DNA of 64,000 nt from Candidatus Micrarchaeota archaeon (GTDB lineage Archaea; Micrarchaeota; Micrarchaeia; Anstonellales; Bilamarchaeaceae). A program made the position numbers and the translations under genes. The notes beneath the pieces are model-generated. The model searched no databases, was not told the DNA's origin, and worked only from the letters and a program-made list of their open reading frames with translations. Positions 2,672 through 56,111 of this stretch are shown here, piece by piece (within the stretch, counting starts at the first letter, position 1; every line of letters starts with the position of its first letter). The stretch covers positions 519,417 to 583,416 of the forward strand of contig JBDRCX010000006.1 in NCBI GenBank assembly GCA_043821365.1, in the 5' to 3' direction.

Positions 2672-2683
2672 TTTATAGAACTG

Positions 2684-2824
2684 AAAGGAGATTAGAAAAG
2701 GACCTCGCTCAAAATGCCTTGCATTTTGGGTGTACAAAACCTGCGGTTTTGAACATGGTCCTTTTCATTCTTCTGATTAAAAAAAGGAGATTGAAAGAAC
2801 CTTGGTTCTTTCATTCTTCTGATT
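2684..2824. repeat. Duplicated hairpin unit between convergent lonB and the DUF373 gene; the upstream copy carries a 52-nt double-hairpin insert in its loop
   Basis: Unit B (2783-2824) is AAAGGAGATT-GAAAGAACC-TT-GGTTCTTTC-ATTCTTCTGATT. Unit A (2684-2778) has the same flanks, with stem GAAAAGGACC/GGTCCTTTTC enclosing hairpins at 2710-2728 and 2735-2751. Confidence 0.7.
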
Positions 2825-9824: not shown

Positions 9825-10773
9825 TTGTTTTATCATCAATATCTATTTTTTTGTCTAAGAATTTTAGTATTATTTCTTTGTTTGTACTAAAGTGTTCTGT
9901 TATCCTACTTGTTTTGTATTTTGTTTTACCATCAGACAAAACAGCATAAATCAGAAGCTGGTCCGCAAGATGACAATCAACATCCTCATTTTCAGAATTT
10001 AGTATATCTAGAGCTTCTTTTGCAACTTCTTCTGCTCGTTTTCCTTTTTCACCAAGAACATATGCTCCTCTATATCCTTTCCAAGTAGTTACTGAATTCC
10101 CTGGTGAAAGTGCTGGGTTTTGCCTTATGAAAACCTTTTCAATCTCATTTTGTACAAATATTTTTTTCTCTCGAATTGCAATGGAGGATGGCAATTCCGA
10201 TACTCTTAACATGGCAAAAATTTCATTACTTTGTTGCCAGGATTCACAACCAGCAAGTTTGGATGGTTTTATTTTTACTTCTATTTCTCCACCGCCTCTT
10301 GGATAATATCCTGGTTTTACCATTTCTGATTCAACTATTGCACCGAATTTAGAAATTGCAGGTAGAAATACTTTTTCAAAATAATCATATCCTGGTGATT
10401 TTATGACATGTGTTCCACCTATTATTCTTATTTCGCTTTCCTTGTTTGCATCAAGAAGAATTGGTATTATCGTCTGTGCAACAAGAGTTACTGAACCAGC
10501 AGTTCCAATGTCAAATTGATATTTTCCACCAACAATTTCTCCAGGATTGAATCTTATTTCGCTACTTTCAAGTTCTGCTCCTTCAAGTGTTCCGCGGCAG
10601 ACACTTCGTACAGCACGTGCAGCAGTTAAATGTTGCATTTGTAATCCTGGCTTTGGTCGGTTTGCTCGTATATTAAAAATTCTCACTGGTTTTTTTGTAA
10701 TTGCTGAAAGTGTTAGAGAGGTTCGGATTACTTGACCGCCTCCCTCCCCAAAACTACCATCGATCTCAATCAT
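9799..10773 (-). CDS. rtcA: RNA 3'-terminal phosphate cyclase
   Basis: MIEIDGSFGEGGGQVIRTSLTLSAITKKPVRIFNIRANRPKPGLQMQHL is the RtcA signature, including the catalytic-His region. Confidence 0.9.
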   Translation of the reverse strand: MIEIDGSFGEGGGQVIRTSLTLSAITKKPVRIFNIRANRPKPGLQMQHLTAARAVRSVCRGTLEGAELESSEIRFNPGEIVGGKYQFDIGTAGSVTLVAQTIIPILLDANKESEIRIIGGTHVIKSPGYDYFEKVFLPAISKFGAIVESEMVKPGYYPRGGGEIEVKIKPSKLAGCESWQQSNEIFAMLRVSELPSSIAIREKKIFVQNEIEKVFIRQNPALSPGNSVTTWKGYRGAYVLGEKGKRAEEVAKEALDILNSENEDVDCHLADQLLIYAVLSDGKTKYKTSRITEHFSTNKEIILKFLDKKIDIDDKTITCQSSPY

Positions 10774-11517: not shown

Positions 11518-12108
11518 GTGACCAGAGACACTAAAGAACTTGTCAGGCGTGTTCTTGATCAAAGAGCTACAGCAATACGCGATTTTGCCAGTTCTGTTAG
11601 AGATGCTGTTTTAAAAGATAAGTTAACTGCTCCATTTAACATGCGAGCAGAAGGCCTAACTGCAATGTGGAATCTTACTCAAATTCGCCGTGAAATGTCT
11701 GATGAAATTCATTCTTTGGCAATTCTATTCAAGGATAAGGAAGCTACTAAGGATGAAAAAACTACAGAAGATTGCCGCTTACGTATTGCAAGAATCTCAA
11801 TTGCAAGGTATTTTATTGATCTTGTTGAGAAGATGCAAAAAGCTTCTACAGAAAACGGAAGTCCTGCAGCCAATGCTATTTTTCAATCTGCAGTTAGTGC
11901 AATAAAGCATATCCTTGATGATAAATTTTTTACAAAAGATAAAGATCAGATTATTAATGATCATCTTGATGTTGAACCAGTTATTGCTGCAGCATGTTCT
12001 GCATTTTCCATACCAACAAGTACTCTTTATGACGCAGTGGGAAGCCATGAAGGCAAGGTTGCTCAGGATATTGATAGAGAAATCGGCAGAATCAGAGCAG
12101 AAACATAA
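11518..12108 (+). CDS. Hypothetical helical protein, paralog A of a tandem pair
   Basis: Shares collinear motifs with the next ORF (IARISIARYFIDLVE / LAISRFCLALFFIERTNE; DDKFFTKDKDQIINDHLDVEPVIAAACSAFSIP / NEKYYSASKDYILSFYLDLEPLLCASSDLCELP). Confidence 0.5.
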   Translation: MTRDTKELVRRVLDQRATAIRDFASSVRDAVLKDKLTAPFNMRAEGLTAMWNLTQIRREMSDEIHSLAILFKDKEATKDEKTTEDCRLRIARISIARYFIDLVEKMQKASTENGSPAANAIFQSAVSAIKHILDDKFFTKDKDQIINDHLDVEPVIAAACSAFSIPTSTLYDAVGSHEGKVAQDIDREIGRIRAET

Positions 12109-12149: not shown

Positions 12150-12662
12150 ATGCCAACTGATCCATCTGATATTCTAAATGCTCATCAAAAGAAAAAAACA
12201 GATGCCATTGCATTTTTCAAAGAGCTTGCCCATATGAATTCTGGTCCAATCTCTCAAAATGTGATTAATATAGATAAAAATTCAAAATCACTTGCAGAAA
12301 CAAATTTATTATTTGAAAAAAAATTGTCTGAATTTTCAAAATCAAATATGGATAGTCTTGCTATCTCTAGATTCTGTCTGGCACTTTTTTTTATTGAACG
12401 TACTAATGAAATACATAATATTGTCTTAACTAAGAATGTGGGTGGGTTATACTCTTTATATACTTCTTTAAGAAACCAAGTTTGTGATTTATTAAATGAA
12501 AAGTATTATTCAGCTTCCAAAGATTATATTCTCTCTTTTTATCTTGATCTTGAACCTTTACTGTGTGCATCTTCTGACTTGTGCGAATTGCCTGTTCCTG
12601 AGATCACAACTATCATGGAAACTTACAAATCAAAAATTGCGGATAGACTTGAGAAACTCTGA
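12150..12662 (+). CDS. Hypothetical helical protein, paralog B of a tandem pair
   Basis: See paralog A. Its stop abuts the stop of the convergent 302-aa gene (TGATCA). Confidence 0.5.
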   Translation: MPTDPSDILNAHQKKKTDAIAFFKELAHMNSGPISQNVINIDKNSKSLAETNLLFEKKLSEFSKSNMDSLAISRFCLALFFIERTNEIHNIVLTKNVGGLYSLYTSLRNQVCDLLNEKYYSASKDYILSFYLDLEPLLCASSDLCELPVPEITTIMETYKSKIADRLEKL

Positions 12663-13571
12663 TCATCTCATGTTTCTAATCCCATTCCAACCAGGACTAA
12701 AATCTACTGGGTTTCCAATTTCTCTAGTGTGAAGCCCATTTCTTCCTATAACTCTCTCATAGAATTTCAATTCATGTGAATTACTATCCATATAGAAAAA
12801 TGGCGACCTCCCACTTCTAAAAGTAGAATAACCTGTGTTTATTCCATAATCCAAGCTTAACATTGCTTCAGGCATTAATCTTACTTCAACCCCAAGTCTT
12901 TCATATTTCTTAACTAACATCCTTTGTGTTAATACGTCAATGTCGGTCATGTCTGTTTTTTTATCATAATATTTTGGTTGTATAAGTAATATTGGTCTAC
13001 TACCATCATTCACTAAAAATAATCTTCTTCTAAATACAAAATCATCAGCACTGTCTTCTCTTGCAACTATCTGTTTTATCCATGGTAGTTCTATTGTGCC
13101 TACTACTCCGCCTATATGGAAAGTTGGTTGATGTGGTTCTTGGCAATTTGGATGTCCACGTACTAATCCACCATATAATGCAGTTTCAAAATCTCCAACT
13201 TCACCAACTAACAGATTGCCTATAGTGGCAGTTGTTTCTTGTCTCCATGCTACAAAAAGGGCTTCGCCTCTTTCTCTTCCCATCAAATTATGAAGTTCTC
13301 TACGGAACTCTTCTGAGAATTTGAATTCCTGAAATTTATGTGCTAAGTATGCAGAAAATGCATCATCAAGCACAGCTATTGCTTCTTGAAATGCCTCTTT
13401 TCTTCCTCTATAATCAATTCCAACATTTTTTGGGTCATTTAATTTTGTTAAATTTGCTCTTATTATACCAACGTCTGTAGTTATCCTATCAACCACTACC
13501 TCTCTCCGAGAAAATTTATCTTGTGTATGTGAAAATTGCACTAATCTTTTTGGAGGTTGTCGTCTATCCAT
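12663..13571 (-). CDS. Stand-alone homolog of the C-terminal module of the giant protein (function unknown)
   Basis: Collinear identity blocks with giant-protein residues approx 4189-4444: FQEFKFS-EFR, WRQ, YGG-VRG, TFHI-G-VGT-ELPWIKQIV, RRR-FL, PIL--QPKY, SGRSP--YMDSN, GLH-RE. Confidence 0.6.
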   Translation of the reverse strand: MDRRQPPKRLVQFSHTQDKFSRREVVVDRITTDVGIIRANLTKLNDPKNVGIDYRGRKEAFQEAIAVLDDAFSAYLAHKFQEFKFSEEFRRELHNLMGRERGEALFVAWRQETTATIGNLLVGEVGDFETALYGGLVRGHPNCQEPHQPTFHIGGVVGTIELPWIKQIVAREDSADDFVFRRRLFLVNDGSRPILLIQPKYYDKKTDMTDIDVLTQRMLVKKYERLGVEVRLMPEAMLSLDYGINTGYSTFRSGRSPFFYMDSNSHELKFYERVIGRNGLHTREIGNPVDFSPGWNGIRNMR

Positions 13572-14156: not shown

Positions 14157-17100
14157 CTAATCCTTAATCAGTTCCCCTGTGATGTCACGCCTTTCGTTCC
14201 AGCCTTTTTGAAATATGTCTGGCTGTCTGTATCCCTCACTTGTACCTGGTTCTCTATAATGCAATCCATGGCGTGCAAAGACTATACCTTCTCTTCCTGC
14301 TCTAACTACATAACCATTACTATCCATATAATAATATGGCGATCTACCACTTGTGAATGTTCTATATCCTGCATTTGGACCAATGTCATTTGCATATGCG
14401 TGATCAATGTCTCTTACTCCTATTCCCATCTCTTCATATCTTGTGCGGATGCTTGCCATTACTGCAGTATCTATTTCTGCCAAGCCTGGCATATCCTTTG
14501 CTCCATATTTTGGTTGTGCAACTAATATTGGATTGCCGTCGTCTCCTTGCATGAGGAATATTCTTCTTCTGTATATTATTTCCCCTGCTGGATTTTTGAT
14601 CACAATCTGTTTTATCCATGGCAATTCTACTGTTCCAACTATTCCTGCAATGTGGAATGTCTGTTGTGATATATCTTGACAGGTGCGTTCTCCTCTAACT
14701 CGTCCGCCATAAAATCCATCTTCAAAACTTCCAGTTTCAAGTATAGTGTGGGTTGCATCTCCAACTGTTACTTGATCTGCAGTATGATTCTGTCTCCAAG
14801 TTTCAAATATTCTGCTTCCTCTTTCTTCCCCAACTAAACTAATTAATTCTCCTCTAAATTCGTCGCTAAACTTAAATTCTTGGAATCTTCCTTCTGCCAT
14901 TGCCCTAATTGCTTGATCAAAAACAATAGCAGCCTCTCCGAAACCTTCTTGTGGTCCATAATAGCCAACCAAGTTTTGTGTTGATCTTGGTGCAGCTTCC
15001 GTAAGATTACCACGATATTGTGTATAATCCATTATCAAATCAATATTTTCTAATATAAATGCAGCTGGAAGTTGGACATCAGAAGGTATGAACAATTTGC
15101 CAATTTCAGAACTAACTGTTTGTGTAAAAGCATCGATTGGAAGAACCCCACCATCGGGCCCAATGAGGTTTCTGCTTATCCTTGCAAGATCTGCGGGTGA
15201 TACCTTTCCATCTAAGTATGCATTGTATATAAGGTCCATATAATCTATCTTCCCTCTTGTTCTACTACTTCCTAAAAATTCTGCTTTATCTGCTTTTGTT
15301 GCTCCATCTCTTGCAATATATTCCAATTCTGCTCCTACTAATCTTAACCATGGTTCTACTGTTGTGTTCCCACTTGAATTGAAGATATTGTCCATTAAAT
15401 CTGCAACTTGTCTGAAATTTGCATGACTTCTTAGTTCCTTTCTTATAGCATCGCTACTCAATGCACGCAATACTAAACTTCTTGGAACTGGTCCAGTTTC
15501 AGGTAGTAAATATGTTGCAAAAGGAAGCCTATTTGGTCTTACACTTAGTTGGTCTGCTCTATCTGCAGTTATATCACCAAGAAGTATTGTTTCTTGCCTT
15601 GTTTTTCTCCCAACCTTAACATCAACTCTTATAGCAAGTGCTTCACTAAGAACCCCAAAATCTAAATTGTCTAAATTGCTTCCAATCAATTGCATATATG
15701 CTTCTCTTGATTCTGCAGTTGGAAGTCTACTAACATCATCAAATAGATATTCGAAAATATGTTTTACTACAGCTCCTCTTGCATCCGGATCTGTTATCTG
15801 ATCTAGTGGAATTCTATCGAGTAGTCTTCTGCTTGTTTCTGTTGCTTGCTCAAGCATTCTGAAACTATCAACATCAGTTGGCCTGAAATTATCAAGCAGT
15901 CCATTTCTAACTCCTGGTTTGACCTCATGTGAGAGCAGGGGTACTGGATCCACTCCAAGTAAATGAAGTTTTGCTGCAAATCCAAGAACATTACCAATTT
16001 GTCCTATAGTTATAAATCCTTCAACCTGCGCATAATGCAAATGTTCATCAAGTGCTGCAACTGTTCTTGAATATGCCTCAAGCATCTGCACTCTTGTTTC
16101 TTCTGGTGCTGTTCTTCTGATTGTTTTTGCACCTGCCATGACAGCATCCCTCATCATCTCAGGACTGCTGGAAAGAGATTGGTCAAGTGTGTCTAAAATG
16201 TGTGTTTCTTTTGCACTATTAACTTCTCTACTTATTTCTCCTTCGTAATATGTGCGTAATTCTGCAGGTGTCATTCCATCGTCAGCTATTCTGACCAAGA
16301 GTATATTCTCTACGCCATCATATTCAAAATTAAACTGAACATTCCCATCTTCTCTAATTACTGCTTCATATGTTACTCTGCTTGGAAGATCACTTTCTTC
16401 CATCCCTAATATTGATCTGCTTGGTGGTTTTGTTACATCTGGTCTTTTTACTACGACTTCTCTTCCTGCATAAACATCATCTGCTGCTTGAGAAATTGGA
16501 TTTCTTAATATTGTGGTTCTGTCTCTTCCATTTGTGAAATCAGTTGGCACATGTGAATCATCAGCAACACCAATCAAGTGGGGGCTATCTTCTGGTGCTC
16601 TGCTAGTATGGAGTCTTGCAGGGGCTGTTTTTCTAAGTGGATCTATTACAACAAATCCACTTCCTCTTCCATATGCCTCACTCATGCTTGCATCTAAATT
16701 GGTAACATATCCTCCAGCTGCCCTAACTCCTTTTCCTCTGGAATGGCCAACATAAATATGATCAACACCAAGTGCTTCTCTCCATTGAGCTGCAATCTCC
16801 TGGCTCATAATTGGTGCCCATCCATGCCTTCCTTCAACATATGCAGAAGAGTAATCTCCACTTTCCATAACTCGTATGTCTCCAAATACTGTTCCCCAAT
16901 GGTTATCTGCAGTAGTAAATAATCTTTGGAAATGTGCATCCAACATTTCAGGACTTGTAATTAACTGCCCATCACTTTGCAATACTGGTCCACCATGTGT
17001 GAAATAATTATTATCTATTATTACTGCTGCTCTTGACTGTTCAATGAAATGCATGAAACTTCCTTCTATTACTCTTCCTTGCTGATCATAATTTTCATGT

Positions 17101-20100
17101 ATGAAATTTTCCCAACTTCCATATCTTTCAATAATCGATTCAAATGTTTGGTCCACACCAACACGGCTCCACTGCTTCATGGCACCCATTATGTCATCTG
17201 CATTGGCCTTCCCTTCAAATACGGCTCTAACCTCTTGATCGCTTGAACCTCTATAAAATTCTACAAATCTTCTAAACAATTCTTCATGATTGCCTCTCAA
17301 TGCATGCACCCTAGTTCCTGTTTGCCCACCATCTGATTTCATCTGGCTTACTAATTCCACAACATCTACGCTTGTTGGTCCACGATCAATATAATCTCCC
17401 ATAAAAACAATCTGGCTTCCTTCTGGTAAATCTGGGTTTAGTCTATACCTCTTGGCAGGTGGAACATATCTTGGATCAGTTTTTGGCAATGTTCTTGGTA
17501 TCCCTTCCATAGTGTCAATTAAGATTCCTTGTCTAAGGAATTGGTCAACAACACCATAAACATCTCCATGCACATCACCAATTGCTATTACCTGACGTGC
17601 ATTTTGGATTACATCAACATAAGCACCTTGTTTCATGGTTGGTGGTGAACTTTCTATTGCTTCAAGGACTGTTCCATATCTATCTGCTATTGCAATTGCT
17701 TCATCTAAACTCCCAGTTCTAATTGCTTCTTGGTACGTTGCATCACTACCAAGTTGTTCAGCAAGCATTCTTTCGTTTGCAGTTCCTAATTTACTATCTT
17801 CAGCAATTAAATGAAGGCGGCGTCCTAATTTTGTACTTTCTGGTATCCTTTTTCCAAGTTGTTGTTCTTGTACTGCTAATTCTACTTCTCTTTCTTGTTG
17901 TCTAACTCTATACCTATATGCATGGTCTGGTTCACCAGTTCTTTTTTGTACTGGTGCTAATCTCGGTGCATCATCAACTATTGCAAGTGACATTCCGTCT
18001 GGTGATCTTGTTATTGCCTGGCGCCTTATTTCAAATGTTCTACCCTCGGTTAATACAAAGTCTTGAAATGCTTCAAGCATATCAGCTCCACGTGGTTCTG
18101 GTAATCTCCTAAGTTTAATTACAAGATCCTCTACTTTCCGTAATTGTGGATTTTTTCTTATTACTTCAGTAATGTCCCTAAGTTTACCAAGCCCTAATCT
18201 TGTTAATGTATCATCATTACCTATTGCCATTGCAGCAATAATCGCATCTGCACTATCATAATTTTCTGAACCCCACAACATCCTCAAGCGTCCATTTGAT
18301 ATTGATGCCATTGCATCTGCAAAGTTTGCGTTTTCAATTGGTACTGCTCCTTGTTTTTGTACACTCATTTTTACTCCTGCACTATGTAATTGTTCATCGA
18401 TAACTCTTGCCATCACAGTTGCATCAGCAGGTGTTCCGCCTTCAATCACATATTTCATTGTTCCTAAACGTCTTACTGTGACACCGTGTTCTGTTGCATA
18501 TCTTGCAACTGCAGCTTCTACAGTACTAACAAGGTAATTTGCACCATCATGGCCAAGGAATGTATTGAATCCACGCAAACCAAATGCATTTCTTTCTACT
18601 TCTGCATATCCTTTTCCTGTTATCTCTAAGTATGGTGTTTCAACTGTTCTTTCTACTCCTGGAAGTCTTCCTCCTATATCAACATAAGCTTGATTATCAT
18701 CTATTTGGAGCCTTACTTCAAATGCAGTTCCGCTAACTGTTTCTCCATCTCCAACCTGCCCTATTGATTCTGATAGTTTCCATCCAACTCCTGTTCTTAC
18801 CCCTAATCTTTCTCTAAGTGATGGTGCAAAACTCAAAGAACCATCTTCTTCTGCTCTAGTTATTAGCCCTTCTAAAAACCCTATTCTGCTTTCAGAACGC
18901 TGCAACATGGCATCGCTTCCATCAGCATGTACTGCAACTGCTCTTCCGTCTTCTGCTCTTCCAACTGTTACTGGTCTGCTAATATCATATGATGCTTCAA
19001 TTAATCTAAGTGGGTCTGTCATTAATGAAAGTGAATATCTTAATCTTCCAGAACCATCTGATGCCGTGCTAATTCTTTGGAATTCAGCATCAGTAACTGC
19101 TCTCATTTCTTGTCCTAGTCTTGTTCTAACGTCTTCTCCTTTTCCTTTTGGTACTATTATGATTCCTACTGCTTCATCCCCACCTCCACTTGGTGGGCGT
19201 ATTATGTGTGCAGTTTGTTCTTGACTATCCCCAATGATCCTTCTTACTGCTCCTTGTATTATGTCTTGATAAACTCCAAGAGCTTGATCCCCAACTTCTT
19301 CTCCAAACATTTTATTGATCTGACTTAGTGATTTTTTATCTGGTCGTATTACGATGACATCCATTTCTTGTCCTTGCATTGCGTCCGACAGAATCACATC
19401 TTCGATTGATCTAACCATTCTTCCAATTGAAACTTCTTCGCCAGCAACAGCTTCATGTCCAATCAACCATTCGGGTTGCCCTGTTCGTACTAACTCACCA
19501 TCAATCAACTCAACTCCTGCACGTCTGAGAACATGTCCAACTACATCATCAGTTTTGAAAAGTTCGCGACTAGGTCGCAATCTTACAAATTCACCTGCTT
19601 CAATTGATTCTGGTTCAACTACTGGTGCCCTAGTTTCTGGTTCAACTACTTTTGTTTCTGGTCCTCTTGTTCTACGTCCTTTGCTAATAGGAGTAGGTTC
19701 AATACCCTCTGCTCCAACAGCAATTGGCATCGCTGTTTCAGTAACTCTTGCTTGTGCACCTACTTTTCTTGGGTGCCCAACCATAAGTTTTATCACAATT
19801 GTTGGGCTCCCTTCTATATCTTGAGATACTGCAAAACATCTTGCTTTTGCTTCTGGTGTATCTGGTATCTCACCACGTATGGCTGCTTGATCAACAAGAT
19901 CTTCAAATTTTATTTCTGCTACTGGTCTTCCTGTTCTTTTTGATGCTTCTAAAACAATTTCTGATGTTTCAAAGCCAGCCATTCTTCGTAATGCTTTCAA
20001 ATTCTTTCCTGGTTTTGTTGGGCTGAGTTCTCCTCTTTGTATCCCACTGCCCATTGCTATTTTTGCTTCTTCAAATAATGTGAATTCACCTTCATATTTT

Positions 20101-23100
20101 CTTACCAAATGAGCAGGTCTTCCTGAAACTAGTGAGTAAGTATCTTCAGATGTTGTTAATCTTCTTACTAATGAATGTATTGCAGTTCTTCCTGCTTGTC
20201 CTTCTTGAGTTGCACCAAACAATCCAATTCTTAGTTCTCCTCTTGGTGTTCTGCTTGCAGTTGCAAATGCAACTATTCTTCCACCCTCTCTTGCTACAAA
20301 CCAAATTGGTGTTACTTCTGTAAATAATTTTTCAGGATTACTATAATGTAAGTCTGCAGCACCATAAGCTTCATCATAAAGTCTTTTTATCTCAGGCCAA
20401 GCTGCTGCTCGTTCTTGTTCAGTTATTTCAGACCATGGTCTTTTACCATCAACTTCAATATCAGTAATTGCTCTTTTTCTTTCAACAAATTCCTGGCTTT
20501 CATCATGCCTAACTGGTTCAAGTGTTCGTAATTTTGCAGCCAATTTTTCAGTTCCTTGCTCAATTCTTGTTGCAAATTCCTCTAGTTGTTTTGCTCTTGC
20601 TGTTTCTCCTGCCTCGCGTAAAACCTTTGCTTCACCTCTGAATCTACTTACATTTGCTTTTCTTCTTGTTATAGTTTCTCTTAGATTCTCTACTGTTACT
20701 GGTCTTTCTAGTAATCGTTGTTCTTCAGACATTGCCCTTATTACTATAGCTTCTGGTTGCCTTGCTATTTCTGGTATTTTCATTGCTGCATCAAGACCAA
20801 ATTCCAACTGTCTTGCTCTGCTTTTTCGATTAGCTAAATATTCAGGATTTAATGCAAGTTCCATTGCATGCCTCTGAACTTTTTCAGGTTGCCCTCTAAG
20901 TGCTTCTGCCACAAATGCTCTTTTTTGTTCTGGGGGCAATGAAGCAAATTCTGGATTATTAAGAATTCTCTCTGCACTACTTACAATTCTCAGTGCAGTA
21001 TCAACATGTTCAGAAGAATAAGTTTTTTGTTCTTCTCCTCTCCCTAATCTATATGTTGTTCCATCTTCACCGGGTTCTATGAATCTACTTTTTAATTGTG
21101 CATGCAAAACTTGTTCTGCTGCTCTTTCACGACGTTCCCGCATTTCTGTTGTTCTATCTACAGGGGCATCTTGTTCTGCATCGTGGGGATGTCCTCCTGG
21201 TATCTCAGCTTCTGGAGGATTAAGGAAATATACTTCGGCTTCTGCCAAAAATTTCTCAGTTGCTGCAGCACCTAGTGGTCTAAATTCAGTTCTTCCGCCA
21301 ACTTTTCTTGTTGGTATTCTATCCATGAATACCAATCCTTCTTCTGGTGTAAGACTTCTTCCTAATCGCAATTCCATCTGGCCATACAAAGTTTTTTGTG
21401 TCTCACCAAGTTGGCCGAATCTTTTTCCATGTTGGGCTCTTAGTGCGGTTGTCTCTGCAAGGCTCATTGTATGAACGGTTTCTCCAGTCAGGCCAGTCAT
21501 CACTCCTCTGAAAATTTTTGCTCCTCTTGTGTCTTGGGATGTTCCAGCAACTCTCCATGCTCTTGCAGTTCTTGTTGGTGCAACATGCGCTCCAACTGGT
21601 GCTGTTGCTTGTACTACACCAAGTACACCAGTTGTAAAGAATTCTAATCCACCTATATCTCCATGTATCCATGCTTTTCCAGATTCATAGGCTCCATAAC
21701 CTGCCATTCCAAGGCCGCCTGCCATTAGCCCCCCACCAAGGACGGTGATTCCTCTCCCACCAGTTCCCATCATACTACTAAACATTGTCACTCTGCCAAC
21801 TGCAAGAGATTCATTTGCAATTCCACTTAAACTACCAAGTGCTGCACCACCAAAACCCAAAACAACTCCACCTACTCCAAGTACTTGTTCTGCTGTACCC
21901 ATCTGCGAAAATCCACCTGATCTTCGGCTATTTTCTGCTAGATCATGAAGTGCCTTTGTTCCAAATCCAACACCAACAACTGCTCCAAAACCAGTTGCAG
22001 TAAGTCCTAGTGCAAGAGTAAGTTCAACTCCTGCCTGTATCCCTCTTGCAGTACTTTCAGAACTCTGGCCTTCTTTTAAAAGGCGGCCATAGTCTGTATC
22101 ATATTGTCCTGCAAAATCTGATGTTTCTGCATACAATCCTTGAATGTATTCATCAGTAGCTGGTTTTCCACCTTGTAATCTATTCTGCAAAACTCCATTT
22201 ATAACTTCTAAATCATGATCTGCATAAGTAGCTACAACATCATACATTTGTTTTCTTTCACTATATGACCAAATTGTTGTAAGTCCAAGATGAACTCCGA
22301 AATAATCGCCAAGCAATTGGCTTATACCTTTTATGTCTTTTGTCCCTGTTGCATGCGCAAGAACAACTTTGTGTTCTTCTGGTGTGAGGCGTACCTGGGT
22401 CCATCCATCATCTTCGTCCCAGGCTATTCCCATTTTTGCAAATGTTGCAGTTGTGTATAAGTCAGCTAATTTTATTGGTTCGCGATGTGCTGCAAGAGCA
22501 AACCTGTCTCCTTCAACATGTTTAAATCCAACAGAATATGTTTGTAGCGAATCTAGATATCCATGCATGGCAGCGTATAATGCATGTGGAATGTCATCAT
22601 AATCAGCACCGGCACTAATTTTAGCATCATCATAAACTCCGTCTCGGTCTCTTATCTTTACCTCTATTGCCGGTAGACTGACCTGCCCCCCGCTTAATAT
22701 TTTGCGTGTGATTCCTTCAGGATCAGATGCAGCTGCTCTTCCAATTTGGAGTAAGTCTGCTGCTCTCCATCTTAGATTCATGTTAAAAGGGCTGTAACCA
22801 TGGGTTCTTACGTACTGGTCAACATTATCAAATAGCATTATTGAATCTTCCAAACAACTCATGGCAAGTTGAGCACCAGCATTGAATTGATCCACTCGTG
22901 TACTAATTCTACTAAACTCAAGATCAGCTGTTAATTGTGCATGCAATCCGGGTCTTATCTGATCATGTTCTTGAAGATAAGCCAACCCCTTTCTCATTGG
23001 TGTGCCATCTTCTACCATTTCTTCATAAACTGCCTGGCCTCCTTTTTCTATTCTTCTTTGATTATATATCCTACCATTAAATCCATTTGTGGCTTGATAT

Positions 23101-26100
23101 ATCCCCCATATCAAATCCCTACTATATTCTGGTTTGAATGTATCTGCATATCCTTCTGTTAACATTACATCAATTGATGTTCCAAGCACTCTTGAGGTTT
23201 GTACTAAATCTTCTCTGACTTCTTTTGCATTTCCTGCAAGGGCTCTTGTTATTCCTGTGGCAAGTACAGCATCCAAAACTTGCTGGTGTGCTCCTATTGC
23301 TGCATAATCTATTTTTTCATCACCTTGTGGTATCTCTTGTGGTTTTCCAAATTCGCCTAAGTTGTGTTCAAGTCTTGTAAGTTCAACTTCTCGTTGTCTT
23401 AAGTATTCCATCTGACTAAGTCTTTGCATTCCTACCTGGTAGACTGAAGCAAAACTAGCAAAACGTTGATTGGTTTCATCGATTGTTCCGTCCAGTTCTC
23501 CTGAACCTACTCCTCCACGGCTTAGTTCTGCAATATCACCATCAATTAGATGAACAACCTCAGCAGTCTGAAGTCTTAAGTGATGAGCAGTATCAGATAA
23601 TTCACTTGCGTGATGGACTATTATTTCTCCTATTTCTCCCTCTTTCATCTCACCGTGTGTTCTTTCGATTTTATCTTCCATACTAGCTAATCTTCCTGCA
23701 TTCACTTCCAAACCAGTTTTTTGATACATTCTTCTAATCATTAACGGTTGGTTTGCTGTAAATTGATCTAGTTGTATTCTAACGTATTCAAGTTGTTGAT
23801 CTATTGATTCAGGTGTACTTGTTCCGTTCACCATTCTATCAATTTCATCATCAACTTTTCCTGCAGCTGCATCAAGCTCTGCTGCTAAAGTTGCCGCACC
23901 ACTTGCAATAATTTGCCGTGATTCTTGTGTTCTCTCTTTTGTTTCTGGTTCCATTCCCTTTCCTTCGGTGGTGTCTGCATATTGTTGCATTAATGCTTCT
24001 GCCTGTCTTTCAAATGATCCTCTTTCCAACAATAACATCTGTGATTGCTGTGCAAACTCAACTCTTTTTGGGAATGTTGCAAGTCTTAGTTCAACTTCCC
24101 TAAAGTTTCCTGTGGCCCTGGTCATATCAATGCTATAAACTTCTTCCATAAGGCCACGGTAATCAAATCCCACAACTACTGGTTCACCATCATTGCCAGT
24201 TTTTATCTCAGTTCTTAATACCTCTCCATCTCTTTGGCTGTCATCAGCCATATCAAATAACATTGCATGTTGCTGGTGAATGTCTACTTTTCTCTGATCT
24301 AATTGAATTCCAAAAACCGCACTTTTCAATGTTTTCTGAGCGTGTCCAAATCTTTCTCTTCTTGCATATCTTTTCGCAAGTTCAAGTTCTTGCATTCTTG
24401 CCTGTGTATCAAGTAAAGGAGTGCCTGCTTCTATTGTTGCACCAGCATGTTCTACAGTTGCTGCTAAGGTTATCGCACCCTCTTCTCTCCCGCTTCCATG
24501 TTGCTGGTCAAGTTCTCTAAGTCTTGCTTGTTCTGCTTCTATGCTTTTTACAAAACGTGCAACAGTATGCTGTATCTGTCTTTCTCTTCCAACTTTGGCC
24601 CCTCCTTCTAACATAGTATATGATGCACCTGCAATCATCCTACGTTGAGTGTCATCAAGTTCTGGCTCTTCAATTTTGGATAACTCAAGTAATATTTGTG
24701 CAGCTTCATCATACTCTTTTCTCCCTCGGTATCTGTGTATTGTTCTTATTGTTGTTATGCTTGAATGAAGTTGCAATAATGCCTGTTGGCCTTGTTGGGA
24801 AAGATAAATCATTCTCAATCCTTTTTGTTCTAAAACATCTGCTTCTGGTGTGCCTGCTTTCCTCATTGTTCTTGCTTGTTGGACTAGTTCAAGTCCCCTT
24901 GAATAACTGGTACTAAATCCTTCTGCCATTGTTGTTATCCTTTCGTAATCTATCCTCTCAGCTTCTTGGGTCTGTATATCTGCTTCCAGTATCCTTCCTG
25001 CTTTTTCAGCAACTGTGGCTTTCCTTTCGTGGTAACCACTTTGTGCTGTATAAGTAGCACCAATCCTTGTTTGTTGTGTTGGTGTTGTTCCAATTATTTT
25101 AGAACCAGTTCGCTGGAATTCAAGTAGCATTAATCGACTATCATGTTCCTGCTGTATACTTTCAAGTGAAGCAATTCGTTTTGTATCACCAACTGGCAGA
25201 AGTGCTACTAGTTTTTCATCTTCAGAAGAATTAATTGTATTTATGAAACTATTTCCACTGATCAAAGCAGTTCCTAATGGTCCAGATAGTGTTGTTGGTA
25301 CAAACCTTTGTGGATTTCCCTCTTCTAAAAGCATATCAAGTATCCGGTGGTCACCAAGTGCAGTACTACCCCTATAATCGCCAAGAACAGTCCTTACAAA
25401 TTCTGGTATTTCCTTCTCACCTGGCTGCTTTGCTGCTCTACAATAAAGATCAGCAAGATCTCTTACTCTTTCTGCCCCTTCAACATCCCCTCTTGCAAAC
25501 AAAACCTCTGCTGCATCATAGTATGCTTGTATGTTCCTTCGTACACTAGAGCTTGGTATCCCTTCCATTCCCTTTTGTTTTCTTAGTTCTGCCTCGAGTA
25601 TCCATCTGACTTTTTCTACAGGTAGACTTTCAATTTCCATTCTTGTTATCTCATCTGCTATGGTTGCTACATCTCTGTCATTTATTGGTCTCGAGCATGC
25701 ATTTGCTCCAAGGATATATACAAGAAATTCTTCTTGCGATTTATCCCCTTCTATTGCATCCTGTGCTCTATGTAAGATGTCTATTGTTCCGTAGAAGGCC
25801 AAATCTCTTGCTTTGCCTGTGATATCAGCTACGTTGCCAAGTGTTCTCAAGGAAGGGTCCAATGTATGGATTCCATCTCCGGCTACAAATGATGCAATCT
25901 GTTCTGGCTTTCCAAGGTAAAGTATTTGCATTCTTCCATACGCTGTTCTTTCTTTATCAGTTAATTCTTCACCATTTGCAATCTTTTCAAGTAACCTGTC
26001 CATATACTCTATCGGGCGACTGTACAAATCAGTAAGATCAATCTGTTTTTTCTGTCTTGCAGTTTCATGTAACTCAAGAATTGCAAGTTGTGTTTTGGTT

Positions 26101-27491
26101 ATCTCAATATAAACAGCAGTTTCCTGAACATGTTCACCTGCTGTTAGTGATATGCCATGAAGCTGTGCTCGTTTTTCTGGTGTTGTTAATTTATTGGCAT
26201 ATAATTGGCTAAGTTCAATTTGTATTTGCATCTGAGTACTATCACTAGAAGCCATGGCAGCAAAAATTCTCTCATGAATTCCGTTGAATTGTTCTAATTG
26301 TTCTGAACTCATGGATTGATAACTTTTCAAATAAGTTTCAACTATTTTTTGTAAACCGCTTGCAGTATATACCTGTTGCAATGTTGCTTCATCTGTTTTC
26401 AAACCAACTATTGCATCATGCAGTCCACCTACTGTTGGAATTTCTTGGCTTTCAATGTCTGCAATTAGATGATCTCTGATCTCATTTCTAACTGTTGCTT
26501 CATCTTTTCTACCAGTTACTAAGTCGTCGCTCCATGTTGCTAATTTTTTCCTAAATGCACTATCAGCAGTTTCATACTGAGCTAATATGTATTCATATAA
26601 TGCAAGCTCATCTTCTTTCAGTGTTCCTTGTTCAGCAAATTCTGTTCTCAATTCTTTAACTCTTACATACATTCCTTGGATAAAACTTGGTGGGGCATCA
26701 CGCATTCCTAAATCTTGTAGGTGCTCTATCATTCCGTCTATTCCGGCAAGCTTTTGTTGCTTTAGAATCCCAACACCATCTCTGAATCTTTGCATTACTT
26801 CTTGGAGTTCTTGATTATTTTCATCAGTAAATTCTTGTCCTGCATCTATCTGTCTCTTAAGAACTTGTGACACTTGGATGATACCCTGTCCAAGGCTACT
26901 TTGCGGTGTTATATACTGTTTATTAGAAATAAAAAATTCTGATAATTCTATCAATCCCTTAATCCTTTTTTCAGATAGGCCATAGTCTTGGAAAGATGCA
27001 CGCAATGCCTCAGTCAGTTCTTGTGGTGCATCGACAAGTCTTTTTTCAAGCGCTATTATAGTTACCAATCCAGTAAGTTTTGCTTCTGCTTCATCCATCA
27101 ATTCTCTTGATTTTTCTAGCTGTCCGGTTCTCATTTCCTGTATGCTTTTATCTGCTAAACTTCTAATGCGTGCAATCTCTGGCGTATACTTGGTTAATGA
27201 TTCACCATCTAATCTTTCGGATATCTGTCCATCCAATGCTCTACGTCTTTGTTCAACAGCTTCTACAGTTGGTAATGTTGATCCAAGTGCTCCTGCAGTT
27301 TCTGCAAGTTGAGTTCTAGCATGATCAGCAGCTGCAGTAGCTTCTCTTAATTCCCGTTCTGCTCTAGCACGTGGCCCTCTTCTCGGAGTTATGCTTGCCA
27401 GTCCACCTGCAACGTCTCGTACTTCCCCTACAACTCGGTCGGCCTGTCCTACAGCAAGTTCAACATCAGTTGGTCTAACCTGTTCAGCCAA
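14157..27491 (-). CDS. Giant multidomain protein (4,444 aa): helical N-terminal region, glycine-zipper hydrophobic segment, GGDEF-like palm domains, PPP-family phosphatase domain and a novel C-terminal module
   Basis: Uninterrupted 13,335-nt ORF in an AT-rich genome with a TTG start. Motifs read directly: GDVHGD / GDYIDRG / GNHE; GGGDE; G/A-rich hydrophobic repeats. Confidence 0.9.
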   Translation of the reverse strand: MAEQVRPTDVELAVGQADRVVGEVRDVAGGLASITPRRGPRARAERELREATAAADHARTQLAETAGALGSTLPTVEAVEQRRRALDGQISERLDGESLTKYTPEIARIRSLADKSIQEMRTGQLEKSRELMDEAEAKLTGLVTIIALEKRLVDAPQELTEALRASFQDYGLSEKRIKGLIELSEFFISNKQYITPQSSLGQGIIQVSQVLKRQIDAGQEFTDENNQELQEVMQRFRDGVGILKQQKLAGIDGMIEHLQDLGMRDAPPSFIQGMYVRVKELRTEFAEQGTLKEDELALYEYILAQYETADSAFRKKLATWSDDLVTGRKDEATVRNEIRDHLIADIESQEIPTVGGLHDAIVGLKTDEATLQQVYTASGLQKIVETYLKSYQSMSSEQLEQFNGIHERIFAAMASSDSTQMQIQIELSQLYANKLTTPEKRAQLHGISLTAGEHVQETAVYIEITKTQLAILELHETARQKKQIDLTDLYSRPIEYMDRLLEKIANGEELTDKERTAYGRMQILYLGKPEQIASFVAGDGIHTLDPSLRTLGNVADITGKARDLAFYGTIDILHRAQDAIEGDKSQEEFLVYILGANACSRPINDRDVATIADEITRMEIESLPVEKVRWILEAELRKQKGMEGIPSSSVRRNIQAYYDAAEVLFARGDVEGAERVRDLADLYCRAAKQPGEKEIPEFVRTVLGDYRGSTALGDHRILDMLLEEGNPQRFVPTTLSGPLGTALISGNSFINTINSSEDEKLVALLPVGDTKRIASLESIQQEHDSRLMLLEFQRTGSKIIGTTPTQQTRIGATYTAQSGYHERKATVAEKAGRILEADIQTQEAERIDYERITTMAEGFSTSYSRGLELVQQARTMRKAGTPEADVLEQKGLRMIYLSQQGQQALLQLHSSITTIRTIHRYRGRKEYDEAAQILLELSKIEEPELDDTQRRMIAGASYTMLEGGAKVGRERQIQHTVARFVKSIEAEQARLRELDQQHGSGREEGAITLAATVEHAGATIEAGTPLLDTQARMQELELAKRYARRERFGHAQKTLKSAVFGIQLDQRKVDIHQQHAMLFDMADDSQRDGEVLRTEIKTGNDGEPVVVGFDYRGLMEEVYSIDMTRATGNFREVELRLATFPKRVEFAQQSQMLLLERGSFERQAEALMQQYADTTEGKGMEPETKERTQESRQIIASGAATLAAELDAAAGKVDDEIDRMVNGTSTPESIDQQLEYVRIQLDQFTANQPLMIRRMYQKTGLEVNAGRLASMEDKIERTHGEMKEGEIGEIIVHHASELSDTAHHLRLQTAEVVHLIDGDIAELSRGGVGSGELDGTIDETNQRFASFASVYQVGMQRLSQMEYLRQREVELTRLEHNLGEFGKPQEIPQGDEKIDYAAIGAHQQVLDAVLATGITRALAGNAKEVREDLVQTSRVLGTSIDVMLTEGYADTFKPEYSRDLIWGIYQATNGFNGRIYNQRRIEKGGQAVYEEMVEDGTPMRKGLAYLQEHDQIRPGLHAQLTADLEFSRISTRVDQFNAGAQLAMSCLEDSIMLFDNVDQYVRTHGYSPFNMNLRWRAADLLQIGRAAASDPEGITRKILSGGQVSLPAIEVKIRDRDGVYDDAKISAGADYDDIPHALYAAMHGYLDSLQTYSVGFKHVEGDRFALAAHREPIKLADLYTTATFAKMGIAWDEDDGWTQVRLTPEEHKVVLAHATGTKDIKGISQLLGDYFGVHLGLTTIWSYSERKQMYDVVATYADHDLEVINGVLQNRLQGGKPATDEYIQGLYAETSDFAGQYDTDYGRLLKEGQSSESTARGIQAGVELTLALGLTATGFGAVVGVGFGTKALHDLAENSRRSGGFSQMGTAEQVLGVGGVVLGFGGAALGSLSGIANESLAVGRVTMFSSMMGTGGRGITVLGGGLMAGGLGMAGYGAYESGKAWIHGDIGGLEFFTTGVLGVVQATAPVGAHVAPTRTARAWRVAGTSQDTRGAKIFRGVMTGLTGETVHTMSLAETTALRAQHGKRFGQLGETQKTLYGQMELRLGRSLTPEEGLVFMDRIPTRKVGGRTEFRPLGAAATEKFLAEAEVYFLNPPEAEIPGGHPHDAEQDAPVDRTTEMRERRERAAEQVLHAQLKSRFIEPGEDGTTYRLGRGEEQKTYSSEHVDTALRIVSSAERILNNPEFASLPPEQKRAFVAEALRGQPEKVQRHAMELALNPEYLANRKSRARQLEFGLDAAMKIPEIARQPEAIVIRAMSEEQRLLERPVTVENLRETITRRKANVSRFRGEAKVLREAGETARAKQLEEFATRIEQGTEKLAAKLRTLEPVRHDESQEFVERKRAITDIEVDGKRPWSEITEQERAAAWPEIKRLYDEAYGAADLHYSNPEKLFTEVTPIWFVAREGGRIVAFATASRTPRGELRIGLFGATQEGQAGRTAIHSLVRRLTTSEDTYSLVSGRPAHLVRKYEGEFTLFEEAKIAMGSGIQRGELSPTKPGKNLKALRRMAGFETSEIVLEASKRTGRPVAEIKFEDLVDQAAIRGEIPDTPEAKARCFAVSQDIEGSPTIVIKLMVGHPRKVGAQARVTETAMPIAVGAEGIEPTPISKGRRTRGPETKVVEPETRAPVVEPESIEAGEFVRLRPSRELFKTDDVVGHVLRRAGVELIDGELVRTGQPEWLIGHEAVAGEEVSIGRMVRSIEDVILSDAMQGQEMDVIVIRPDKKSLSQINKMFGEEVGDQALGVYQDIIQGAVRRIIGDSQEQTAHIIRPPSGGGDEAVGIIIVPKGKGEDVRTRLGQEMRAVTDAEFQRISTASDGSGRLRYSLSLMTDPLRLIEASYDISRPVTVGRAEDGRAVAVHADGSDAMLQRSESRIGFLEGLITRAEEDGSLSFAPSLRERLGVRTGVGWKLSESIGQVGDGETVSGTAFEVRLQIDDNQAYVDIGGRLPGVERTVETPYLEITGKGYAEVERNAFGLRGFNTFLGHDGANYLVSTVEAAVARYATEHGVTVRRLGTMKYVIEGGTPADATVMARVIDEQLHSAGVKMSVQKQGAVPIENANFADAMASISNGRLRMLWGSENYDSADAIIAAMAIGNDDTLTRLGLGKLRDITEVIRKNPQLRKVEDLVIKLRRLPEPRGADMLEAFQDFVLTEGRTFEIRRQAITRSPDGMSLAIVDDAPRLAPVQKRTGEPDHAYRYRVRQQEREVELAVQEQQLGKRIPESTKLGRRLHLIAEDSKLGTANERMLAEQLGSDATYQEAIRTGSLDEAIAIADRYGTVLEAIESSPPTMKQGAYVDVIQNARQVIAIGDVHGDVYGVVDQFLRQGILIDTMEGIPRTLPKTDPRYVPPAKRYRLNPDLPEGSQIVFMGDYIDRGPTSVDVVELVSQMKSDGGQTGTRVHALRGNHEELFRRFVEFYRGSSDQEVRAVFEGKANADDIMGAMKQWSRVGVDQTFESIIERYGSWENFIHENYDQQGRVIEGSFMHFIEQSRAAVIIDNNYFTHGGPVLQSDGQLITSPEMLDAHFQRLFTTADNHWGTVFGDIRVMESGDYSSAYVEGRHGWAPIMSQEIAAQWREALGVDHIYVGHSRGKGVRAAGGYVTNLDASMSEAYGRGSGFVVIDPLRKTAPARLHTSRAPEDSPHLIGVADDSHVPTDFTNGRDRTTILRNPISQAADDVYAGREVVVKRPDVTKPPSRSILGMEESDLPSRVTYEAVIREDGNVQFNFEYDGVENILLVRIADDGMTPAELRTYYEGEISREVNSAKETHILDTLDQSLSSSPEMMRDAVMAGAKTIRRTAPEETRVQMLEAYSRTVAALDEHLHYAQVEGFITIGQIGNVLGFAAKLHLLGVDPVPLLSHEVKPGVRNGLLDNFRPTDVDSFRMLEQATETSRRLLDRIPLDQITDPDARGAVVKHIFEYLFDDVSRLPTAESREAYMQLIGSNLDNLDFGVLSEALAIRVDVKVGRKTRQETILLGDITADRADQLSVRPNRLPFATYLLPETGPVPRSLVLRALSSDAIRKELRSHANFRQVADLMDNIFNSSGNTTVEPWLRLVGAELEYIARDGATKADKAEFLGSSRTRGKIDYMDLIYNAYLDGKVSPADLARISRNLIGPDGGVLPIDAFTQTVSSEIGKLFIPSDVQLPAAFILENIDLIMDYTQYRGNLTEAAPRSTQNLVGYYGPQEGFGEAAIVFDQAIRAMAEGRFQEFKFSDEFRGELISLVGEERGSRIFETWRQNHTADQVTVGDATHTILETGSFEDGFYGGRVRGERTCQDISQQTFHIAGIVGTVELPWIKQIVIKNPAGEIIYRRRIFLMQGDDGNPILVAQPKYGAKDMPGLAEIDTAVMASIRTRYEEMGIGVRDIDHAYANDIGPNAGYRTFTSGRSPYYYMDSNGYVVRAGREGIVFARHGLHYREPGTSEGYRQPDIFQKGWNERRDITGELIKD
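16650..17600 (-). other. PPP-family (calcineurin-like) Ser/Thr phosphatase or ApaH-like metallophosphatase domain inside the giant ORF
   Basis: IAIGDVHGD (17562-17579), MGDYIDRG (17379-17399), RGNHE (17283-17294), downstream THGG and VGHS. Confidence 0.8.
19000..19380 (-). other. GGDEF-like nucleotidyl-cyclase palm domain inside the giant ORF
   Basis: MDVIVIRPDKKSLSQINKMFGEEVGDQAL...IRPPSGGGDEAVGIIIV is collinear with the GGDEF pattern (D-x-D-x-FK-x-iND-x-GH-x-GD ... GGDEF). GGGDE lies at 19173-19187. Confidence 0.55.
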
Positions 27492-27499
27492 ATCTTCAC

Positions 27500-27814
27500 C
27501 TAATTTTTCGTATAACAGATATTTACAAATTCCTGCAGCATATTAATGCGTTCGTTGTAATCTCGTCTTCTATTTTTTGTAATTAAAACTTTCTTTTCCC
27601 ATTCACTCAAAGCAGTGTGTAATTTTTTGTACCCCGTAAATTTTGGTTCAAGGTCTTTTGGTCTTGTTTTTGCATTATCCCATTTTGCAATTGCATCTTC
27701 AAGTACAGAAATAGTGTTATTGACTTTTTCAATAACCTTCTTTTCAACAAGATCTATGTTTGATTCATTGACTGGTTGACCAAATTCAAAATCTTTATTC
27801 TTGTTGTTATCCAT
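27500..27814 (-). CDS. Hypothetical small helical protein, first gene of the giant-protein operon
   Basis: 104-aa ORF whose stop lies 8 nt upstream of the giant ORF start. An ATATATAAAAAT box sits about 35 nt upstream on the minus strand. Confidence 0.5.
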   Translation of the reverse strand: MDNNKNKDFEFGQPVNESNIDLVEKKVIEKVNNTISVLEDAIAKWDNAKTRPKDLEPKFTGYKKLHTALSEWEKKVLITKNRRRDYNERINMLQEFVNICYTKN

Positions 27815-56101: not shown

Positions 56102-56111
56102 GGCGGAATAC

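Follow-up and report, generated by a model that had tools for sequence, protein, structure and literature searches.

A GGDEF-like two-palm module in a giant Micrarchaeota protein: a candidate single-chain nucleotidyl cyclase or oligonucleotide synthase

Could a giant archaeal protein make a cyclic nucleotide? The question is raised by a 64,000-nucleotide stretch of Candidatus Micrarchaeota archaeon DNA (contig JBDRCX010000006.1, positions 519,417 to 583,416), here called the window, which carries a giant open reading frame (ORF) on its minus strand. The original prediction, made from the letters of this DNA, placed two GGDEF-like palm domains in the encoded protein, one with a GGGDE motif and one degenerate. 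GGDEF enzymes are reported to be almost exclusively bacterial; neither c-di-GMP (cyclic dimeric GMP) nor GGDEF cyclases have been detected in archaea (PMC10249747), and enzymes of this type are not expected in the Micrarchaeota lineage (PMC10249747). We found that both motif pairs do lie in the giant protein, all four of the quoted peptides being in one minus-strand frame of ORF 14157-27491, and that they belong to a conserved module of about 500 amino acids (aa). We consider it somewhat probable that this module, aa 2660-3160, represents a new family in the GGDEF/Cas10 palm superfamily and works as a single-chain nucleotidyl cyclase or oligonucleotide synthase. The ORF, the module and the first palm are laid out as follows.

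14157-27491, minus strand: giant ORF, 4,444 aa, 13.3 kb
18012..19514, minus strand: conserved two-palm module, aa 2660-3160, the only part common to all 46 homologues
19065..19427, minus strand: palm 1, aa 2689-2809, α0-β1-α1-α2-β2-hairpin-β3-α3, GGDEF-like, with the predicted catalytic residues kept
19332-19364, minus strand: peptide MDVIVIRPDKK, aa 2710-2720
19338..19340, minus strand: Asp2718, last residue of β1, aligned with the first Asp that binds metal in GGDEF (D in DxxGFK)
19287..19316, minus strand: Asn2726 ... Gly2734-Asp2735 (INKMFGEEVGD), aligned with the Asn and Asp that contact the base in GGDEF (IND-x-YGH-xx-GD)
19152-19190, minus strand: peptide SGGGDEAVGIIIV, aa 2768-2780
19173..19178, minus strand: Asp2772-Glu2773 in the β2-β3 hairpin, aligned with the D/E-E of GG(D/E)EF

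The module was delimited by its homologues. An exhaustive HMMER search of 1.84 billion representatives yielded 46 proteins, all annotated "hypothetical" and each from a cluster of one to three members. Part of them are giants, the longest having 7,300 aa, and the position of the module varies widely among these; others are free-standing proteins of 480 to 680 aa (typically about 550 aa) with little beyond the module. A scan of genome contigs found giant ORFs at four Micrarchaeota loci that match aa ~2643-3195 at 29 to 49% identity, and at one of these loci the module is the sole part of the giant ORF that matches. Three other pieces of the window's giant protein, namely the metallophosphoesterase module, a weakly GNAT-like module and the C-terminal module, are found again in homologues, where their order is shuffled. 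Because the two-palm module is the common denominator of these otherwise shuffled giants, and also stands alone, it is an autonomous, mobile unit. Pfam found no match at all in six homologous large proteins (1,015 to 4,529 aa, four of them longer than 3,600 aa), PHROGs had nothing for the two-palm module, and literature searches on giant proteins in Micrarchaeota or Bilamarchaeum gave no description of the protein or the module. A word-index homologue search with the 501-aa region or the 38-sequence alignment as query returned none, though the collection includes members; the word index evidently misses the family.

Palm 1 keeps the residues that matter in GGDEF enzymes. Conservation was counted across 43 homologous sequences that are only 17 to 54% identical. 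The three metal acids are nearly invariant (D2718 in 41 of 42, D2772 in 42 of 43 and E2773 in 43 of 43), and they are followed closely by K2719 (40/42), N2726 (39/42), G2734 (39/42) and R2765 (38/43), the last of which aligns with the Arg that precedes the hairpin in GGDEF domains. Position 2735 is D in 31 of 42 homologues and N in 7. The invariant positions of palm 1 coincide exactly with the functionally critical positions of GGDEF. We take the counterparts of Asn2726 and Asp2735 to be the guanine-contacting N335 and D344 of PleD. The proposal that palm 1 is collinear with the pattern running from the metal-binding Asp to GGDEF was borne out in exact register, with both the metal Asp and the D-E hairpin kept. 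The pattern D-x6-[ILVFM]N-x3-G-x3-GD-x2-[LIVM], which was written post hoc, occurs once in the giant protein where composition would lead one to expect about 1.8e-4 occurrences.

Sequence searches pointed to the same family. On the excised region, GGDEF (PF00990) was the sole Pfam match (E = 0.0046-0.0095, 16.2-17.2 bits). When 38 members were scanned one by one, 9 matched GGDEF weakly (best E = 2e-4), and GGDEF alone was matched by more than one member. NCBIfam gave weak DgcS, DgcJ and GGDEF matches on the same residues. A profile of the 38 sequences, run against the PDB sequences, found 11 chains at E ≤ 10, of which 9 are GGDEF cyclases (best E = 0.013); the alignment spans α0 to β3 and pairs D2718, N2726, G-D and D-E with their GGDEF equivalents (e.g., 4urq). 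In an hhalign comparison of the family profile with the Thermotoga maritima GGDEF domain, palm 1 aligned over 75 columns (E = 5.6e-5, 66% probability). The alignments agree on these pairs, and D2718 is also in register with DosC. Two other searches were discarded. A single-sequence phmmer search of the PDB sequences gave only noise, and the BMC-domain matches of a 4-sequence profile against PDB are spurious, lying in an insertion and taking in the target's His tag.

The second half of the module is made up as follows.

18750..19064, minus strand: β-rich middle domain and linker, aa 2810-2914, with a 70-100 aa insertion in several homologues
18279..18749, minus strand: palm 2, aa 2915-3071, fold and register as in palm 1, acidic pair replaced by Met/Leu-Lys ("GTMKY")
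18528-18584, minus strand: peptide FGLRGFNTFLGHDGANYLV, aa 2970-2988
18438-18473, minus strand: peptide RRLGTMKYVIEG, aa 3007-3018
18012..18278, minus strand: helical bundle at the C-terminal end of the module, aa 3072-3160, near-invariant pair R3118 ... D3122 ("IRNVEDL")

A second copy had been placed about 250 aa downstream of the first, and we found that it starts about 260 aa after it. As predicted, this copy lacks the GGDEF loop. Across the 43 sequences, the positions equivalent to the acidic pair hold Leu or Met followed by Lys or Arg. The hhalign alignment of palm 2 with GGDEF (E = 1.4e-3, probability 18%) has the register that was proposed, in which NTFLGH-xx-AN is paired with INDTYGH-xx-GD and R-L-G-T-M-K-Y with R-Y-G-G-D-E-F. 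An hhalign comparison of the palm 1 profile with the palm 2 profile is in the correct register but only weakly suggestive (E = 0.045); at that value we do not claim an internal duplication detectable in sequence. Palm 2 has a set of near-invariant residues of its own, namely K2960 (42/43), G2961, E2964 (40/43), N2976 (42/43), G2980 (41/43), N/D2985 (43/43) and Y3014 (37/43), and in the helical bundle R3118 is present in 42 of 43 homologues and D3122 is near-invariant. Such conservation points to a second binding or regulatory site that has been maintained, and not to a relic.

Does the module also fold as two palms? AlphaFold2, given a 38-sequence alignment built from proteins of the exhaustive search, modeled aa 2660-3160 as a confident single body (pLDDT 92.1, pTM 0.90) in which the order β-α-α-β-β-α-β occurs twice. 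In module numbering, palm 1 occupies residues 30-150, the β domain 150-255, palm 2 256-412 and the helices 413-500. Palm 1 consists of α0, β1 (51-60), α1 (63-70), α2 (72-94), β2 (101-106), β3 (116-122) and α3 (126-150). Palm 2 has a β-strand at 260-266, an insertion, a helix at 313-343, strands at 346-351 and 354-358, a helix at 362-378 and further strands, and is followed by the helical bundle at 416-500. Modeled alone, palm 2 reached a pLDDT of 92.9. The predicted fold thus agrees with the claim of two GGDEF-like palms, and in neither domain is it incompatible with a palm.

Palm enzymes dominated the Foldseek listing for the whole module against PDB. The GGDEF domains of SadC, WspR, DosC and an Idiomarina cyclase matched with prob 0.99, a target TM-score of 0.43-0.54 and a root-mean-square deviation (rmsd) of 6-8 Å. 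The predicted palm fold can therefore be superposed on solved GGDEF domains, with all E-values above 1e-3. Cas10/Csm1/Cmr2 structures (6ifn_A, 9g9h_A, 3ung and 4doz) were aligned along the full length of the module at E ≈ 1e-2 with TM-scores of 0.14-0.21 and prob 0.33-0.47, and further matches were a class III cyclase, group II intron reverse transcriptases (RTs), DRT4 and DRT9. A phage GGDEF domain in BFVD had prob 1.00, and its 110 aligned columns are 27% identical at 4.0 Å. Palm 2 on its own found WspR and Vibrio cholerae GGDEF domains (~4-5 Å over ~110 columns) and mycobacterial class III adenylyl cyclases at the top, with cyanobacterial class III adenylyl cyclases, a herpesvirus primase and RTs among the others, all at E-values of 0.02 to 0.3. 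The GGDEF and class III cyclase matches have prob 0.85-0.97.

Several observations weigh against reading the module as a GGDEF-related synthase. Taken singly, none of the lines of evidence is significant by a conventional threshold. The PF00990 profile, which the original prediction had named as a check, scored about 17 bits and so fell short of its 23.8-bit gathering threshold; the NCBIfam GGDEF model TIGR00254 gave 11.6 bits against a cut-off of 37.4, and class III cyclase, Cas10 and CD-NTase profiles, named in the same place, gave no matches. The hhalign probability for palm 1 is 66%. No Foldseek match has E ≤ 1e-3, TM-scores do not exceed 0.54, and the top match of the whole module is Abi-P2 (E = 8e-3, prob 0.92, ~280 columns); the palm fold is common to polymerases and RTs as well. 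A cyclic-nucleotide receptor or effector of known type was not found in the neighborhood. Finally, the two-palm family, with its signature x-[S/G]-D-E-x, conserves neither the Gly pair nor the Phe of GGDEF. D-E is preceded by S/T/R/G and then S (25) or G (17), and E is followed by T, G, V or A but never by Phe, so that the window copy, GGGDEA, falls short of the full GG(D/E)EF signature. The GGGDE motif in the original prediction therefore stands as to its D-E, which the family conserves, but its "GG" is peculiar to this copy.

One could go further and regard the motifs as a chance match on a generic ferredoxin-like (RRM) fold, given that every score is below its family threshold and that M16 peptidases, AcrB and cytochrome bc1 core proteins appear in Foldseek at similar E-values. 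However, those unrelated matches have prob ≤ 0.25 and rmsd >20 Å, and the critical GGDEF positions would have to be exactly the family's invariant positions by accident. Because several independent methods agree on one family and one register, we consider a chance resemblance very unlikely.

A different chemistry has to be weighed more closely. Palm 1 might extend a primer, a protein or an RNA end, as a template-independent or protein-primed polymerase or nucleotidyltransferase (Abi-P2/AbiK, Thg1-like) does. The metallophosphoesterase that follows the module in the giant protein is relevant here.

16692..17624, minus strand: calcineurin-like metallophosphoesterase (GDVHGD / GDYIDRG / GNHE), aa ~3290-3600, 3' of the module; Pfam Metallophos E = 1e-10

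Its NCBIfam matches are of the Pnkp, PrpE and ApaH types, the best being the phosphatase domain of bacterial polynucleotide kinase-phosphatase. In PHROGs it matched a λ/NinI-like phosphatase (E = 3e-12), and another PHROG match is an RNA ligase. In a polymerase scenario, this Pnkp/λ-phosphatase-like neighbor would process nucleic-acid ends. The first place of Abi-P2 in Foldseek would fit the scenario, as would the group II intron RTs, DRT4/DRT9 and AbiA in the same listing and a maturase RT that the 38-sequence profile found in PDB, with palm 2 as the aligned part (E = 0.48). The three-acid catalytic site is itself common to polymerases and cyclases (PMC2904730). However, the sequence-level matches are all GGDEF cyclases, with none from the RT, Thg1 or polymerase families. 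Abi-P2 superposes poorly (rmsd 14-17 Å, versus 6-8 Å for the GGDEF domains), fingers, a thumb or another nucleic-acid-binding domain was not recognised, and the N ... GD base-contact pair is a GGDEF feature. We regard a polymerase or end-extending transferase as rather unlikely.

Might the module bind a nucleotide without turning it over? Degenerate GGDEF domains such as those of LapD and PelD act as receptors for c-di-GMP or GTP, and a catalytically silent nucleotide-binding sensor or scaffold would account for the clear degeneracy of palm 2. LapD-type degenerate GGDEF domains are in the Foldseek listing (3pjw and 6pwj), the signature GG is missing from most members, and one free-standing paralogue, P0044 of the L005 cluster described below, has lost both the β1 Asp and the D of D-E. 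Against such a pseudo-enzyme stand the three metal acids of palm 1, kept in 41 to 43 of 43 sequences despite 17-54% identity. Near-perfect conservation of three acids is expected for catalysis and is unneeded for binding alone, and for this reason we judge a silent sensor or scaffold to be improbable.

The reading that we prefer is that of a single-chain cyclase or oligonucleotide synthase, because a two-metal constellation combined with an active and a degenerate palm parallels Cas10 and the class III cyclases. In Cas10 the nucleotide is held by both palms and the chemistry is done by one, and heterodimeric class III cyclases have one active site and one pseudo-site. The palm 1 constellation is of the two-metal nucleotidyl transfer type, as in GGDEF, Cas10, class III cyclases and Thg1 (PMC2904730). 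In the mechanism that we propose, palm 1 would be the catalytic half, with two Mg2+/Mn2+ ions held by Asp2718 and Asp2772-Glu2773. The base of the bound nucleoside triphosphate (NTP) would be in contact with Asn2726 and Asp2735; it would most likely be a purine, and the NTP may be GTP. Palm 2 would most likely supply a second nucleotide site, acceptor or regulatory, as does the degenerate half of Cas10 or of heterodimeric class III cyclases. Nucleotidyl transfer from the NTP may then yield a cyclic or linear mono-, di- or oligonucleotide; synthesis of a cyclic nucleotide, and of c-di-GMP in particular, is put forward as a hypothesis. The adjacent metallophosphoesterase is a plausible partner that would hydrolyze the product, or its pyrophosphate or phosphate ends. 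Class III phosphodiesterases of cyclic nucleoside monophosphates belong to the calcineurin-like phosphoesterase superfamily. The metallophosphoesterase module likewise follows the palm module in five homologous giant proteins, and the wider phosphoesterase module (aa 3177-3694) is 56% identical to that of an orthologous giant ORF at locus L003 (Candidatus Bilamarchaeum dharawalense LFW-283_2, CABMJJ010000011.1), the best-conserved stretch of that comparison.

How does the module compare with known systems? The GGDEF cyclases (PF00990; PleD, WspR, DosC and T. maritima TM1788) are its best matches in both sequence and structure. In common with it they have the palm topology and, at equal spacing, the metal Asp, the hydrophobic-Asn in α1 and G-x3-G-D in α2. 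The Arg ahead of the hairpin and the D-E in the β2-β3 hairpin are shared as well. However, palm 1 scores below the GGDEF thresholds, has the altered signature around D-E and lacks the His of "GH". c-di-GMP is made by a dimer of two GTP-loaded GGDEF domains. Whereas those are homodimers of single domains, palm 1 is fused in cis with a degenerate palm, a β domain and a helical bundle, which suggests a stoichiometry other than that of the GGDEF dimer. Unlike in GGDEF systems, the analysis turned up no partner of the EAL, HD-GYP or PilZ type.

Cas10 (Csm1/Cmr2), which synthesizes cyclic oligoadenylates in type III CRISPR systems, also has two palms per chain, one of them catalytic, an insert domain between the palms and a helical domain after them, and Foldseek aligned it along the full length of the module. 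The original prediction had likened the pair to Cas10, and the order palm, insert, palm, helices supports this. The likeness fails elsewhere. In Cas10 the catalytic GGDD lies in the second palm and the first is degenerate, whereas the module has its intact palm first, with the motif SDE or GDE; no HD or Zn-finger domain was recognised in the module, and the global superposition is poor. No Cas families were found among 20 neighboring proteins, and the window contains no CRISPR or other repeat array. With the palm order reversed and no Cas context, we reject membership in Cas10.

The class III cyclases (Ma1120, Rv1900c, CyaC and the mammalian C1-C2 pseudo-heterodimer) share the palm fold and the principle of a catalytic plus a degenerate palm. 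This likeness is at the level of the fold only, the motif register of the module following GGDEF instead, and PF00211 gave no match at E ≤ 10 in the excised regions or at E ≤ 1 in the 38 members. A CD-NTase (SMODS) was also rejected, there being no Pfam or PADLOC match and the predicted fold being a palm rather than Pol-β, as was a Y-family polymerase or RT, for which there is no sequence support. The module is not a member of Pfam GGDEF, Cas10 or any other curated family.

A precedent in function may be mCpol (minimal CRISPR polymerase) of the anti-phage system Panoptes, a palm enzyme of GGDEF/Cas10-like type that stands alone and produces cyclic nucleotides without being part of a CRISPR system (PMC12657218, PMC12657230). 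Since mCpol is active, divergent and unannotated palms of the GGDEF/Cas10 clade can be signal synthases. The two-palm module is set apart from it by architecture, mCpol being a small bacterial protein with a single palm that is paired with a membrane effector (2TM/CARF-type). No mCpol profile or structure turned up in any search, and PADLOC had nothing for the two-palm family (PADLOC-DB 2.0, which is older than Panoptes).

In DPANN symbionts, giant proteins are "dark" almost throughout, and the two-palm module is their one conserved, confidently folded part. Its intact catalytic constellation provides a concrete enzymatic hypothesis for the role of these giants. The module also adds a further independent design of one active plus one degenerate palm to those of Cas10 and the mammalian adenylyl cyclases, and this design bears on the evolution of the GGDEF/Cas10/Thg1 clade (PMC2904730). 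More speculatively, and with considerable doubt, Micrarchaeota and perhaps other DPANN archaea may have a GGDEF-type lineage of their own, in which a single-chain synthase with one active and one degenerate palm makes a cyclic or linear nucleotide signal based on guanine or another purine, sits in membrane-anchored giant proteins at the symbiont-host interface and has beside it a metallophosphoesterase that turns the signal over. If this is true, it would be the first GGDEF-class nucleotide signaling native to Archaea, in an architecture convergent on that of Cas10.

The giant protein resembles other very large proteins in its general build. The DPANN giant proteins of the nanohaloarchaeal SPEARE type (PMC10266531) and the "polyvalent" conflict proteins are likewise very large, membrane-associated and modular, in a reduced symbiont genome. 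Unlike these, the window's giant shows no protease, adhesin or restriction-endonuclease domains, and the palm module and the metallophosphoesterase are its only recognisable domains. The candidate membrane region of the giant protein is as follows.

21816..22031, minus strand: Gly-rich hydrophobic segments, aa 1821-1892, found in a Kyte-Doolittle scan

On hydropathy these segments are probably transmembrane helices, with the first ~1,800 aa of the protein on one side of them and the enzymatic C-terminal half on the other. Residues 2330-2600 (window 19692-20504, minus strand) show a weak match to GNAT acetyltransferases (Pfam E = 0.059). This GNAT-like segment is a conserved module, which in the homologues P0005, P0009, P0013 and P0021 is placed after the palm module and not before it. 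The TTG at 27491 is the first possible start of the giant ORF, and the true start may be further downstream.

The window is archaeal, as judged from its genes for LonB, DUF373, an S-layer protein, an archaeal-type ProRS and a split RpoB and from the Micrarchaeota relatives of the ProRS. This ProRS is 85% identical to that of Candidatus Bilamarchaeum dharawalense (Micrarchaeota), and all its named relatives are from Micrarchaeota. The giant gene has a GC content of 40%, compared with about 35% in its flanks; along the gene GC is 38-41%, versus ~34-37% across most of the remaining window. Over 14157-27491 both GC and AT skew are strongly negative on the plus strand, which means a purine-rich coding strand. 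This skewed composition may be the gene's own bias or may reflect a foreign origin.

Two homologous loci show variations of their own. At L005 (1826-9716; JGI 3300018080, a 524-kb Micrarchaeota-like contig), three free-standing two-palm paralogues (676, 541 and 571 aa) form a cluster, with small unannotated genes of the opposite strand lying between them. At L003, an in-frame TGA (10310-10312) falls within helix α2 of palm 1. This single codon, at which homologues carry Gln or Arg, divides the orthologous giant ORF into halves of 2,699 aa and 3,193 aa; it may stem from an error in sequencing, from a recent nonsense mutation or from read-through.

Immediately upstream of the giant ORF lies a small gene.

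27500..27814, minus strand: 104-aa ORF, 8 bp upstream of the giant ORF, no Pfam match

In three other Micrarchaeota a counterpart of this ORF (tblastn E = 1e-16 to 1e-21) stands in the same place ahead of the giant gene, at L003 1943-2197, L004 1576-1824 and L001 1197-1457; the ORF is probably a conserved operon partner of the giant gene. Farther upstream, at 28460-29614 (minus strand), is the gene of a protein of 384 aa that is extremely rich in His, contains internal repeats (HHEEHH..., and two copies of FEADAHLHPGHSRLVGGFWHGGHGNTHHEEHH) and may bind metal; its L003 homologue (614-1768) is also upstream of the giant gene.

A 302-aa ORF (12663-13571, minus strand) lies about 0.6 kb beyond the giant gene on its 3' side, and a single ORF of 178 aa separates the two. 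The 302-aa ORF is 44% identical to aa 4160-4437 of the giant protein, the last ~280 residues (blastp E = 5e-64), and is therefore a free-standing paralogue of its C-terminal domain. The adjacent unannotated ORFs at 11518-12108 (plus strand, 196 aa) and 12150-12662 (plus strand, 170 aa) may be mutually related, because they match one and the same part of L001 (about 404-700). In L001, L003 and L004 the giant genes are likewise flanked by homologues of one of these ORFs or of both, which places the two ORFs in a conserved neighborhood.

Elsewhere in the window, two large adjacent ORFs at 50861-56101 (plus strand, 1,746 aa) and 56094-61064 (plus strand, 1,656 aa) contain right-handed β-helix repeats and are probably surface proteins. 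A 305-aa Fic/DOC-domain protein is encoded at 41385-42302 (plus strand), just downstream of a 960-aa S-layer-like protein.

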